The notes: generated by a model not told the origin, from the sequence alone. A stretch of DNA of 64,000 nucleotides from Candidatus Borrarchaeum weybense (GCA_019057385.1 JAHQJS010000005.1:288799-352798); one strand, 5' to 3'; counted from the first letter of the stretch, positions 40,368 through 51,059 are shown. A program made the numbers and translations.

Positions 40368-40460
40368 TGGCGCCGCCGGAAGGACTCGAACCTTCGACCA
40401 GCGGGTAACTGCCAAGGGTATGTTAACAGCCCGTCACTCTACCAACTGAGCTACGGCGGC
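40368..40460 (-). tRNA. tRNA-Asn(GTT) with a 17-nt intron at 37/38 (40407-40423), CCA encoded
   Basis: Cloverleaf GCCGCCG...GTTCGAGTCC...CGGCGGCGCCA; 93-17=76 nt. Confidence 0.92.
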
Positions 40461-40785
40461 ACTTTAACGACGACATTATGTTTTTTCAAGTATTTTATAA
40501 ATCTTCTCATTTTGAGCTAAGAACGCCTCATTTCCTTTCGTTTTTCTGTATATCTACACATCTTACTTCCCATTGCATAACAGATCTCAGTAAATACTCG
40601 CACTTCGGATAATAGGTGTTTTCTTCTGTACATCAGTACTTCTCTTTTTATACCGACTTTCTTATCGGCTTCAAAACATTTAACTCTTAAGCTGACGGGT
40701 ATTAATATTAGAGAACCAAATCTTCAAATCTGTTTTGCAAAGAGCCTCAGAATATTCAACCAGCAGCCTTTAAAGAGGGAATCCA

Positions 40786-41604
40786 ATGATTCAAAACGTA
40801 TGGATCGTAGAAAAAGATCGAGGACGACGTTTGTTTCATAAACGGTACGGCACTATTGATATAGATCCTGATCTCTTTTCTGCTTTCCTTTCTGGTCTTT
40901 ATGGTTTTGTAGAAGTGGAACTTGGCGAAGCAGGAATCGACAGTATATCGATGGGCGATTTGAAGTGGGTTTATATTTACTCTCGTAACCTTTTGTTTAT
41001 TATAGCCGGCGATAAAGAAGATTATGTCCCTCACTTAAAAGCCAAATTAAACGTTATCAAAAACGAGTTCTTCGTAAAATTTCCCATCTTTAATAAAGAT
41101 TGGCAGGAAGCCTTCAAGCATACGGCATTCAAAAGCCTTCAAGAACAGTTTTATCCTATAGTCGATGAATTAGTTGTCGATTGGATTCAGCTCGCAAAAG
41201 TCACAGATGCTGCAAATTATATGGATATATGTGAAGTATGTCAGCATTTTATAGCCATCATTCGTAAAATAATTGCATCATGTGGCGAAGAAAGAAAGAA
41301 AGCCCTCCTAGATATCCTGAAAATGCAAATTTTAGATCTTATAAAGGGAGACAATGAATTGTCGAAGATCATAACCGAAGATGGCTTTATTGACTTCTTG
41401 CGCGTCAATGTTTTTATGATGACAGAAGATGCCGGGGATATCCTAAAAAAAATTTTAATAAGATGTTTTAACACCCTACGGAATGAATTAGGGTTTACGA
41501 ATTTCCAAGCTATGTTCCGCAAAAAACTTATTCCATATCTTAAAACAGATTGGAAGCGCATACGTTCACTTGATCTTGATATGCTCCTTATCTATCTCTT
41601 GTAA
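40786..41604 (+). CDS. Longin-like domain protein (Asgard-type)
   Basis: NVWIV....G..LF...YG...IDPDLFSAFLSGL..F. Confidence 0.7.
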   Translation: MIQNVWIVEKDRGRRLFHKRYGTIDIDPDLFSAFLSGLYGFVEVELGEAGIDSISMGDLKWVYIYSRNLLFIIAGDKEDYVPHLKAKLNVIKNEFFVKFPIFNKDWQEAFKHTAFKSLQEQFYPIVDELVVDWIQLAKVTDAANYMDICEVCQHFIAIIRKIIASCGEERKKALLDILKMQILDLIKGDNELSKIITEDGFIDFLRVNVFMMTEDAGDILKKILIRCFNTLRNELGFTNFQAMFRKKLIPYLKTDWKRIRSLDLDMLLIYLL

Positions 41605-41780
41605 ACTCTACCTCTACCATCTTTCTCACAAAACGAGTTTTAAGCCTCTGTTCAACATCAAGTTTAGACGCCCTTTGTTGGAAGTTCCCTGGAATCTTTG
41701 GGGTGCAGTTTGCGTCTCATCATCGCCAAGAGAGAAAGGCATTTAAAACCCTATCACCGTTCTCACATCATTAATGGTTT

Positions 41781-41858
41781 GCTCCGGTGGTGTAGTCCGG
41801 CCAAGCATAAGGGGCTTTCGACCCCTTGACTCGGGTTCGAATCCCGGCCGGAGCACCA
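41781..41858 (+). tRNA. tRNA-Glu(TTC), intronless, CCA encoded
   Basis: GCTCCGG...AGGGG-CT-TTC-GA-CCCCT...GGTTCGAATCC...CCGGAGCACCA. Confidence 0.97.
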
Positions 41859-41883
41859 TATCACCCCTTAATATATTTGCTGT

Positions 41884-42060
41884 GCGGGGGTTGCCGAGCC
41901 AGGTCAAAGGCGATGGGCTTAGGATCACAACGTTTATGCCTGTTTTAAGACACCCATTGACGTAGGGAATCACTAGACCACCTAGGGTTCGCAGAAGTCT
42001 GCGTGGGTTCGAAAAATCGATGAGAGCACCTCAACTTCGAAATTCCCATCCCCCGCACCA
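41884..42060 (+). tRNA. tRNA-Leu(TAG) with three introns: 41924-41951 (37/38), about 41966-41996 (variable arm), 42014-42043 (59/60)
   Basis: Removing the three inserts gives an 88-nt class II cloverleaf with CCA; BHB or relaxed BHB at each junction. Confidence 0.88.
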
Positions 42061-42165
42061 CTCTTGGCGTTAGTTATTCCAAAAAGTTTTTATCCAAAAA
42101 ACTTTTACCTTCACTACGAACGTAGAAAATTTCACACTCTATTGTAGATGGCTGGGAGATAGTAT

Positions 42166-42270
42166 GGCCGGGGTGAATGATTCGAGTTTCGAACTCTTTC
42201 ATCCCCCTGGGTAGTGGTATCCTAAGGGATTGTGGCTCCCTCGATCCGGGTTCGATTCCCGGTCCCGGCC
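42166..42270 (+). tRNA. tRNA-His(GTG) with encoded G-1 and a 33-nt intron at 9/10 (42176-42208)
   Basis: Strict BHB (CC/GG, GGGG/CCCC, ATGA/TCAT, bulges TG|A and CT|G); the spliced product is a normal His cloverleaf with C73. Confidence 0.88.
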
Positions 42271-42313
42271 CTCATTTACAGCATTGCATCGGCTGTCTCA
42301 TCGTTCTATCTGT

Positions 42314-42446
42314 GGGCCCGTAGCTCAGTTGGAAGTATTCCGGTGCACTTACGCATCCATTTCAAAAGCGCCTGGTTTGCAGCCAGGAGGCCGCGGGAAG
42401 TTTTCAGACTCCTGGAAACTCGCGATTTCAAATCCCGCCGGGTCCA
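42314..42446 (+). tRNA. tRNA-Ala(TGC) with introns 42336-42366 (22/23) and 42398-42426 (53/54)
   Basis: G3-U70 pair; both junctions fold as BHB-like; spliced length 73 nt. Confidence 0.88.
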
Positions 42447-42555
42447 TTCTGTTCTGTGTGGTGAATAGCCACCGGGCCCTCCCACTACTTCTTTCATCAG
42501 TATTCCGAAGCTACAAAAATCGCAAAAGAACCCATTAAGATCGGGAGAGGGCATT

Positions 42556-42854
42556 CATGGGTCGCCGATATCGGGCAAAGAAGAGTCCTCTTAAATAGCC
42601 AAGGACATTTCCTCATACGGGGAATTGATTATCAGGAATTCGTCAGGATTGGATCTGATATTGACCTCATTTATACGTCACAAGACGTTCAACACGCTTT
42701 GGAATTGATACAAGCATATCCCATCTCATATATTTACGTTGGACCTGATGAACTGCAACAATATGGCGATGGCGTGGACAAATTCGAAAACCAACACTAT
42801 TTCGAACGCGTCTATTTCAATGACGTGGTGAAAATTTACCGATTGAAATCGTAA
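42556..42854 (+). pseudogene. Start-less C-terminal fragment of a GT-C/YYY-type membrane protein
   Basis: Manual translation ...GHFLIRGIDY...IY...Y.ISYIYVGPDE..QYG....F....F..VY.N..VKIYRL*. Confidence 0.5.
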
Positions 42855-49675: not shown

Positions 49676-49726
49676 TTAGATCGTACAGGAACGTGACAAT
49701 CTAGTCATGCGGACGATTTAGTCAAA
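49676..49726 (+). other. 23S BHB intron, 51 nt (about 1617/1618)
   Basis: GACAC|AGGTG; TGAC/GTCA, TAGATCGT/ACGATTTA. Confidence 0.9.
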
Positions 49727-50384
49727 AGGTGCCCCTAGGTGAGCAGCCTAAGGCGTTTCGGGTGAACTCTGGGCTAGGGAAATCGGCAAATTGGCCCCGT
49801 ACCTTCGGAAGAAGGGGTGCCTACGGTCTTGGGTCGCAAACTTGGGACCGTAGGTCGCAGTGACCAGGAAGTGCTATCTGTTTAATAAAAACATAGCTAA
49901 CTGCTAGCGCGAAAGCGTGTGTACAGTTAGTGAGTCCTGGCCAGTGGCGGTAAGTTAAACCTGAGTTCAATCGGGCGAAGCTCCGCTAAACGCCGGGAGT
50001 AACTATAACTCTCTTAAGGTAGCCAAATGCCTTGCCGGATAAGTACCGGCGTGCATGAAGGGAGCAATGAGCGCTTTACTGTCCCAGCCTGGAACCCGGT
50101 GAACCCACTACCTGGCGAACAGTCCAGGGAGTCCTTGCGGGAAGAGAAGACCCCGTGGAGCTTTACTGCAGCCTGTGCCTGTGCTACGATCGTTGATGCA
50201 GAGCGTAGTCGGGAGCCGTTAATCCCAGCCTCTTCGGGGGTTGGAGTAGGCAACCTTGGAACACCGACCTTCTTTGATTGTATCGCTAACCGGAACGAAC
50301 GTTCTGGAACAAGTGCAGGTGGGCAGTTTCGCTGGGGCGGCAGACCCTTGAAAATGTATCAAGGGTGCCCAAAGGTCAGCTCAG

Positions 50385-50416
50385 AATGCAATTACGTAAG
50401 TGAGTTGCATGAGTAA
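50385..50416 (+). other. 23S BHB mini-intron, 32 nt (about 2299/2300)
   Basis: GCTC/GAGT, ATGCAATT/AGTTGCAT. Confidence 0.88.
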
Positions 50417-50427
50417 GTGGGTCAGAA

Positions 50428-50470
50428 TCAACGGATGAGATTCTGGCTATGACCTTATCAGTTGCTGAAT
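50428..50470 (+). other. 23S BHB intron, 43 nt (about 2310/2311)
   Basis: GGTCAGAA|ATCCACC; TCAG/CTGA, CAAC/GTTG. Confidence 0.88.
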
Positions 50471-50488
50471 ATCCACCGTAGAGCGTAA

Positions 50489-50519
50489 AGGTGAAGGTGA
50501 CCACCACCTTGCCATGTAG
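50489..50519 (+). other. 23S BHB mini-intron, 31 nt (about 2328/2329)
   Basis: GAGCGTAA|AGGTAAAAGC; GCGT/ATGT, AAGGTG/CACCTT. Confidence 0.85.
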
Positions 50520-50642
50520 AGGTAAAAGCTGGCTTGACTGTATTCTGACCAGTAAAGAATGCAGGAACGAAAGTTGGGCTTAGCGATCCTCAATACCTTA
50601 TCAGTGGGGGTTTGAGGTGACAGAAAAGTTACCCCGGGGATA

Positions 50643-50756
50643 AATGCGTCAGTTTTGTGAATATAGAAAGTGTGTAGACAAAGCTTAGTAAAGTTGTATG
50701 GGTAATTTAGCTTTGACGATTGTACAACTTTATGAGCGTCTGCGGCGCATTCCCAA
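50643..50756 (+). other. 23S BHB intron, 114 nt, between A2450 and A2451 equivalents
   Basis: GGGATA|ACAG; GGGA/TCCC, ATGCGTC/GGCGCAT. Confidence 0.92.
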
Positions 50757-50872
50757 ACAGAGTCGTCGCGGGCAAGAGCCCATATCGACCCCGCGGCTTG
50801 CTACCTCGATGTCGGCTCTTCCTATCCTCGATGTGCAGCAGCGTCGAAGGGTGGGGTTGTTCGCCCATTAAA

Positions 50873-50904
50873 AAGGAGGCGAAAAATACCTCTCTCCTTA
50901 ATAG
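50873..50904 (+). other. 23S BHB mini-intron, 32 nt (about 2566/2567)
   Basis: ATTA/TAAT, AGGAG/CTCCT, CCC/GGG. Confidence 0.9.
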
Positions 50905-50937
50905 AGGGAACGTGAGCTGGGTTTAGACCGTCGTGAG

Positions 50938-51059
50938 ATCGACTTAGCCGTTATCAAAGGAAACAATCAGGTAACTTAAACCCGATAAGGAAATCCGGTT
51001 ATTTGATTAGTGAGAGGCAGAAATAAGCAAAGTGATGGCAAAGGCTAAGTAGACACGAG
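50938..51059 (+). other. 23S BHB intron, 122 nt (about 2599/2600)
   Basis: CGTCGTGAG|ACAGG; CGTG/CACG, ACTTAGCC/GGCTAAGT. Confidence 0.92.

Follow-up and report, generated by a model that had tools for sequence, protein, structure and literature searches.

The ribosomal RNA (rRNA) operon of Candidatus Borrarchaeum weybense and the transfer RNA (tRNA) genes beside it are interrupted by very short introns whose lengths gather around 31 nucleotides (nt), whichever gene they lie in. We analyzed a stretch of 64,000 nt from this genome (GCA_019057385.1 JAHQJS010000005.1:288799-352798; here called the window), concentrating on positions 40368-51059, and identified 26 introns of the bulge-helix-bulge (BHB) type by a BHB scan and alignment with intron-free relatives in its phylum. 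Seven lie in tRNA genes, seven in the 16S gene, and twelve in the 23S gene, which gives 19 for the rRNA operon alone. An earlier note on this DNA had counted fifteen introns of 28 to 33 nt and had described them as one size class across tRNA, 16S, and 23S genes. Both points were confirmed, with six tRNA, four 16S, and five 23S introns among the fifteen. On balance, we lean toward reading them as ordinary protein-spliced archaeal BHB introns that are held at the minimal self-sufficient size, that have this size in common through a common splicing requirement, and that have come from several origins. Selection on hairpin length would then set intron size.

The BHB geometry was derived from tRNA numbering. 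Exon 1 ends in four helix bases and two bulge bases; the intron consists of one bulge base, an inner helix with its loop, four exon-pairing bases, and two bulge bases; and exon 2 opens with one bulge base. Cleavage by the splicing endonuclease follows the second of the three bases in each bulge, after which RtcB ligates the exons. The plan of the mini-introns is almost uniform, with one bulge nucleotide, a hairpin of 21 to 28 nt (mode 24), the 4-nt exon-pairing strand, and two bulge nucleotides. With its two 3-nt bulges, the central helix forms all four pairs in 23 of the 26 introns and three of four in the others (41962, 44873, and 45041). In many mini-introns the outer exon helix has only 0 to 1 bp, so that recognition of the substrate must depend on the hairpin stacked on the 4-bp helix. 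Both introns at the canonical tRNA position 37/38 lack a hairpin, and one of them is just 17 nt long, whereas every noncanonical intron has one. The 13 rRNA introns of 21 to 43 nt each fold as a single hairpin, are shorter than 50 nt, and contain no open reading frame (ORF), as do the short hairpin (HP, <50 nt) introns keeping the splicing motif that form a described category in the 16S genes of Thermoproteales (Jay and Inskeep 2015, PMC4496867).

Removal at the predicted cut sites restores the conserved mature sequence, as judged by intron-free 16S and 23S alignments and by tRNA models. Furthermore, the partial 16S sequence of a congener (G003) shows exact empty sites for four of the 16S introns in the window. 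From this geometry we infer that the introns are spliced. In 24 wetland or sediment metatranscriptome runs, 19 to 31% of the operon's sequence words occur.

For the tRNA genes, manual parsing was combined with the same BHB scan, and those elsewhere in the genome were analyzed via Rfam alignments. Automatic intron calling, which combined candidate excision with ARAGORN, was dropped because it was overly permissive and missed relaxed motifs, and genome G006 was unsuitable as a compact tRNA reference, since its tRNAs also contain introns. The genome-wide tRNA census is incomplete, and its counts cover the introns recognized by hand parsing and Rfam alignment. Eight further tRNA introns found elsewhere in the genome measure 31, 32, 30, ~20, 42, 31, 31, and 31 nt. 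The class also reaches into mRNA: the secY gene, just upstream of the window, contains a 30-nt segment of plan 1+23+6 (C5:281845-281874, minus strand). Without this segment, an open frame of at least 364 amino acids runs around the junction, while in the unspliced form all frames are broken. Taken together, 22 of the 30 introns shorter than 60 nt in the genome, from tRNA, rRNA, and one mRNA, have 28 to 33 nt (p of ~7e-14 against a uniform spread over 14 to 59 nt), and ten are exactly 31 nt long. A genome-wide scan for mRNA introns by BHB motif and frame restoration gave no excess, with 7697 real candidates versus 7413 in a mirror-geometry control and 10 versus 10 under the strictest filter.

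We analyzed whether the same size occurs in other archaea. We searched 185,579 species genomes by pattern for an insert of 14 to 44 nt at the conserved 23S site ~1926, which is unoccupied in the window, and obtained twelve archaeal genes with introns of 26, 29, 30, 30, 30, 33, 33, 33, 40, 41, 41, and 44 nt. Their hosts are Asgard archaea, Bathyarchaeia, Sulfolobales, Pyrobaculum, and Desulfurococcales; seven of the twelve introns fall at 29 to 33 nt and none at 14 to 25 nt. At 16S site 793, the site of the intron at 44717-44747, a pattern search found 43 metagenome contigs with introns of 19 to 44 nt, each of which contains the complementary 4-mer. The modal length at this site is 31 to 32 nt (31 nt in nine, 32 nt in seven, and 30 nt in four contigs). 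Grouping at 70% identity left 23 clusters, 8 of which have 30 to 32 nt (p of ~0.001 against a flat spread). The inner sequences are highly diverse, also among the introns of 30 to 32 nt. Relatives within the phylum carry rRNA inserts of 30 to 37 nt at other sites, including one 34-nt intron common to two genera. Since the same size mode appears at rRNA sites in unrelated archaea, it is probably mainly a property of the splicing system rather than of a generator peculiar to this locus.

Comparison with close relatives showed that intron turnover is fast. In the Leu-His-Ala tRNA cluster of the congener G004, all six introns are present with unchanged lengths, together with an extra tRNA-His intron. 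Across the ~20 tRNA loci compared between this genome and G004, six introns differ, and all of them have 28 to 31 nt. At an orthologous T-loop site, three congeners carry introns of 28 to 29 nt whose inner sequences are unrelated; the site is empty in this genome. In the sister family, introns are absent at all ten 23S sites covered. Such differences may be gains or losses; because environmental relatives carry an intron at site 793, for instance, loss in G003 is as likely as a gain here for the four 16S introns that it lacks. At the T-loop site and at site 793, length stays constant while sequence changes, which argues for selection on length or geometry and not for descent.

In the reading that we prefer, the precursor RNA would fold into the BHB motif, be cut by the endonuclease, and have its exons joined by RtcB. 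The mini-intron would be the smallest unaided BHB module, in which one bulge base, a hairpin of ~24 nt (9 to 10 bp with a loop of 4 to 5 nt), four pairing bases, and two bulge bases add up to 31 nt. At noncanonical sites, where the motif has a weak exon side or none at all, the intron hairpin would have to carry the motif, while at the canonical anticodon-loop site the body of the tRNA may assist and make the hairpin dispensable. An insert failing the motif would kill the cell if it lay in a single-copy tRNA or rRNA gene, surplus length would not be maintained, and mini-introns would either have been reduced to ~31 nt or have been born at that size. The genome encodes two splicing endonuclease genes of family PF01974 (loci C4:663774 and C5:195898; open frames of 226 and 230 amino acids, in either order) and has one chromosomal gene for the RtcB ligase (PF01139). 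Two endonuclease genes are consistent with the two-subunit enzyme type, which is known for its broad substrate range.

Several observations weigh against this explanation. The peak is tighter here than across lineages (28 to 33 nt in 22 of 30 introns versus 9 of 23 cross-lineage clusters; Fisher p = 0.02), so that a lineage-specific factor, such as a ruler, or birth at a fixed size is possible. We know of no structural reason for the endonuclease to require about one helical turn. Shorter introns exist, with 17, ~20, and 21 nt in this genome and 19 to 27 nt at site 793, some of them with weak hairpins; ~28 nt is therefore not a strict lower limit, and the size is not dictated solely by hairpin stability. 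In addition, the extra tRNA-His intron of G004, which appears to be newborn, already has the modal size, as would be expected just as much from a viability filter as from a generator of fixed size. Also, tRNA intervening sequences in other Asgard families have a median of only 22 to 23 nt (preprint 10.64898/2026.10.13.758758).

Regarding origin, the earlier note had suggested a common mechanism that generates or spreads introns without ORFs. A common mobile source was rejected, since the introns are dissimilar to one another and have no further copies in the genome. Among 20 mini-introns of the window, drawn from tRNA, 16S, and 23S genes, the best local score between introns was 11, compared with 10.0 ± 0.95 in shuffled sequences, and no other copies of them were found in the genome. 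Similarity of the window's mini-introns to their own flanks, in either orientation, did not exceed that of shuffles, and an origin by local duplication was therefore also rejected for the introns of this genome. Instead, three separate origins were found: loss of an ORF in rRNA introns, copying between tRNA genes at the T-loop position, and local exon duplication in a congener.

The first of these is seen at 23S site 1926, where the short introns retain the ends and the basal stem of a 583-nt intron from another genome. Also, the 126-nt 16S intron of the window (44281..44406) shares its site and an internal hairpin element with an intron of ~826 nt in G025 (L018:1973-2798), the ORF of which bears a LAGLIDADG-like motif. 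The 16S gene of G025 seemingly holds additional large introns.

Copying between tRNA genes is indicated by the T-loop introns, which resemble each other across genes (mean pair score of 6.07 versus 4.54 ± 0.28 in shuffles; 0 of 500 shuffles reached this value). When a tandem tRNA pair was aligned over four congeners (C5:248529-248969 of this genome and the orthologues L221, L222, and L223), an identical 29-nt intron occupied gene A in one genome and gene B in two. Such identity in adjacent genes suggests gene conversion between paralogues.

Exon duplication is represented by the extra 31-nt intron in the tRNA-His gene of G004 (L187:1860-1890 on contig C13), which has an exact 1+24+6 plan, a perfect 10-bp stem, and a tetraloop. 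The next exon begins with 16 bases that recur exactly in this intron, and 0 of 200 shuffles came near this match. The intron is thus apparently newborn and partly built from duplicated exon sequence. Of the proposal of a common mechanism, the copying of T-loop introns between tRNA genes and this newborn 31-nt intron remain, while the lack of sequence shared between tRNA, 16S, and 23S introns and the occurrence of the same mode in unrelated archaea speak against a single source. For the two routes that the earlier note had put forward, reverse ligation of circles and mobilization in trans by the three endonucleases encoded here, nothing was found pointing to one or the other; only a single mini-intron (48720-48750) adjoins an endonuclease intron.

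The G004 intron also bears on explanations in which size is set at birth. One of these, which we regard as unlikely, holds that new introns are arising now at ~31 nt as a 10-bp hairpin plus an exon-complementary 4-mer, at least once from a duplicated exon, with the endonuclease filtering by length, like a ruler set to one helical turn. Another would have a single dedicated process make introns at a fixed ~31 nt, either by duplication with fold-back, yielding a 24-nt hairpin beside a complementary 4-mer, or by reinsertion of circles, so that the size is a birth mark. Apart from the G004 intron, which looks new, matches its exon over 16 nt, and already shows the 1+24+6 plan and the perfect stem, this proposal could draw on the fact that the six introns differing between the two congeners all fall at 28 to 31 nt. 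The missing introns at ten 23S sites of the sister family suggest a lineage-specific burst, and the size is common to tRNA, rRNA, and mRNA introns, for which an origin from endonuclease genes is unlikely in the case of tRNA and mRNA. However, the duplication signature is confined to one intron and is missing from 19 introns of the window and the five other differential introns, and the same mode recurs in unrelated lineages at rRNA sites where the short introns are deletion derivatives of long ones. Nothing points to reverse ligation, and a published search for arrival routes of Asgard tRNA introns found no general one. We consider a dedicated fixed-size process quite unlikely.

Alternatively, each mini-intron might be what is left of a large homing-endonuclease-gene (HEG) intron at the same site, with 31 nt as the leftover basal stem, a possibility that the earlier note had named as contradicting its own proposal. 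Such decay accounts for the introns of 26 to 44 nt at 23S site 1926 and for the 126-nt 16S intron with its relation to G025, and the two large introns of the window have basal stems of ~7 to 9 bp, near those of the mini-introns. For the 31-nt introns of the window, in contrast, none of the relatives examined has a large intron at the same sites. Moreover, the size class includes tRNA and mRNA introns, where endonuclease introns are not expected, the T-loop introns spread between tRNA genes free of ORFs, and the extra G004 intron was made from exon sequence. As an account of every mini-intron, decay is therefore improbable.

Local endonucleases could also have carried the rRNA mini-introns along by co-conversion of flanking DNA during homing. 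A precedent for an endonuclease that spreads a neighboring hairpin intron is I-PogI with the ORF-less intron Pog.S1205 at position 1205 of the Pyrobaculum oguniense 16S gene (cited in PMC4496867). In the window, one mini-intron (48720-48750) abuts the LAGLIDADG intron, several are separated from larger introns by no more than a few hundred bases, and a free-standing LAGLIDADG gene follows just downstream of the operon. Against this, genome G016 has the 879-nt 16S intron yet lacks the 31-nt intron located 137 nt upstream of it, the cluster of three introns at 50385-50519 has no endonuclease nearby, and co-conversion leaves the tRNA introns, the mRNA introns, and the size itself unexplained; we judge it to be improbable as well.

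Finally, the short inserts might be retained in the mature RNAs as small expansion hairpins, as two other 23S inserts are true expansion segments and the RNase P RNA has an extra hairpin of ~31 nt without bulges. This is very hard to reconcile with the data, because the inserts interrupt universally conserved single-stranded or functional segments (the 790 loop, T loops, and a D loop), each has exact BHB geometry with an exon-complementary 4-mer, and the congener G003 has precise empty sites. In secY, the insert contains an in-frame stop, and the frame is restored only by excision.

A further claim of the earlier note was a recurring loop, closed by G-C and starting with A. The loops listed in it exist, and minimum-energy folding placed a G-C closing pair followed by A in 6 of 19 hairpins of the window, compared with 3.2% of generic genomic hairpins. 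Nevertheless, closing pairs are G-C in seven and C-G in seven of the 19 hairpins, and no loop sequence is shared. The first loop base is A in 13 of 19, a modest excess in this genome. In the independent set of 23 intron clusters at 16S site 793, the first loop base was T in ten, A in seven, C in four, and G in two clusters, and G-C closure occurred in only three. The claim of a recurring loop is thus weak.

The tRNA genes of the studied span, several of which were located across 40371-42262 with Rfam, contain the following introns. On the minus strand, tRNA-Asn has a 17-nt intron at the canonical position 37/38 (40407..40423) without a hairpin but with a complete central helix (4/4), and its excision yields tRNA-Asn(GTT). 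All other introns of the span are on the plus strand. Three interrupt tRNA-Leu: a 28-nt intron at 37/38 (41924..41951; no inner hairpin, 4/4 central helix, 7-bp outer helix), one of ~29 nt in the variable arm (41962..41990) with a relaxed BHB of 3/4 central pairs, whose limits are uncertain by 1 to 2 nt and whose equal length is kept in G004, and a 30-nt intron in the T loop (42014..42043; 4/4 central helix, 5-bp outer helix). A 33-nt intron at position 9/10 of tRNA-His (42176..42208; 4/4 central helix) gives tRNA-His(GTG) upon excision. Two are located in tRNA-Ala, one of 31 nt (1+24+6) in the D loop (42336..42366; 4/4 central helix), the excision of which restores the D stem, and one of 29 nt in the T arm (42398..42426) with a 9-bp hairpin.

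In the 16S gene, which extends over 2666 nt (43769-46434) compared with a 1478-position Rfam model for archaeal 16S, four introns have empty sites in G003. These are a 39-nt intron with canonical BHB and an 8-bp outer helix (44036..44074), the ORF-less 126-nt intron related to an endonuclease intron (44281..44406), and two 31-nt mini-introns of plan 1+24+6, one recognized by the BHB scan (44615..44645) and one after Escherichia coli position 793 (44717..44747). A third 31-nt mini-intron of the same plan (44873..44903) has 3/4 central pairs, as has the 879-nt intron (45041..45919). A homologue of the latter, with ~70% DNA identity, occupies this site in G016, a genome from a different family. 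The ORF of the 879-nt intron (45158-45955; 265 amino acids) matched no Pfam family and extends beyond the 3' splice site. The last 16S mini-intron, identified by alignment and BHB scan, has 33 nt (1+26+6; 46319..46351).

The 23S gene measures 4804 nt (46595-51398) against a 2987-position Rfam model. Mini-introns of 30 nt (1+23+6; 47258..47287) and 35 nt (1+28+6; 47642..47676) were identified by alignment and BHB scan. They are followed by a 1003-nt intron (47717..48719) with a LAGLIDADG ORF at 47823-48719, which directly abuts a 31-nt mini-intron (1+24+6; 48720..48750). The central helix of the latter (3/4 pairs) needs the upstream exon, i.e., it would form only after excision of the 1003-nt intron. 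A second LAGLIDADG protein is encoded by the free-standing gene at 52790-53380, just downstream of the operon. The BHB scan further identified a 21-nt mini-intron (1+14+6; 49055..49075), introns of 51 nt (49676..49726), 43 nt (50428..50470), and 114 nt (50643..50756), and mini-introns of 32 nt (1+25+6; 50385..50416), 31 nt (1+24+6; 50489..50519), and 32 nt (1+25+6; 50873..50904). The last BHB intron has 122 nt (50938..51059), and in G016 its site is occupied by an insert of 106 nt. Within 50385-50519, three introns of 32, 43, and 31 nt are separated by exons of merely 11 and 18 nt; adjacent splicing motifs therefore share exon bases and are probably processed in order.

Three other inserts were considered as introns and rejected. 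Those at 47376-47511 and 49168-49220 in the 23S gene are helix extensions found in relatives too and represent expansion segments. The RNase P RNA (62346-62725) has 380 nt compared with a 288-position model, and its extra hairpin of ~31 nt (~62666-62696) lacks bulges and misfits the splicing motif. The P12 region contains another insert, which is longer.

The genome comprises 4.18 Mb on 8 contigs with ~37% G+C. Its 179-kb contig C1 carries arrays of intron-free tRNA genes (e.g., C1:19436-19895 and C1:13917-15008) and a second RtcB gene, in contrast to the intron-rich chromosomal tRNAs; it may represent a mobile element, a viral genome, or contamination. On contig C3, beside a tRNA, only model positions 206-317, the 3' third, of the signal recognition particle (SRP) RNA matched (L122:240-351), below the gathering score. 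This match reaches the end of the analyzed stretch, and the remainder may lie beyond it, be interrupted, or be permuted.

Similar introns have been described in other archaea. Like the HP introns of Thermoproteales in the passages of PMC4496867 considered here, those of the window are ORF-less, consist of little beyond a hairpin that keeps the BHB, occupy conserved rRNA sites, and sometimes lie beside endonuclease introns; the Thermoproteales site ~722 appears to match 44615-44645. Unlike them, they belong to another host lineage, with 19 introns in one operon and a size class that also includes tRNA and mRNA introns. The E. coli sites 793 and 914, occupied here, are not in the list of that paper, and the same passages give no size mode.

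Among tRNA introns, work by Fujishima in 2010 reportedly described transposition in Thermoproteales, in which same-position introns of different tRNA genes share sequence, implying copying. Unlike in that case, sharing is confined here to the T-loop introns, while introns at other positions and in rRNA share nothing. Like the Asgard tRNA introns of the published census, those described here occur several per tRNA, at noncanonical positions, with canonical motifs, and with repeated recent gains. The Asgard census papers differ in that they give a median of 22 to 23 nt for the families they focus on and leave rRNA aside, whereas the mode found here is 31 nt and extends to rRNA. Also, no general sign of copying between tRNAs was found in preprint 10.64898/2026.10.13.758758, while here T-loop introns are alike and are identical in two genes of congeners.

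The origin and spread of archaeal protein-spliced introns is an open question, and the 2026 census of Asgard tRNAs closes with the statement "how they arrive remains open." The locus described here and its congeners offer a tractable case, with a sharp size peak that takes in tRNA and rRNA genes and one or more mRNAs, six introns gained or lost between two congeneric species, one intron that shows its source, and direct indications of copying between tRNA genes. The 19 introns in one rRNA operon also disrupt universal primer sites (785 and 907-926 regions), so that rRNA genes of this group are poorly recovered. If the size is a substrate rule of the two-subunit endonuclease, this could be tested in vitro and would explain where such introns can persist. 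If, instead, introns are indeed being born at ~31 nt, intron birth would be visibly ongoing in tRNA, rRNA, and mRNA genes of close relatives of eukaryotes.

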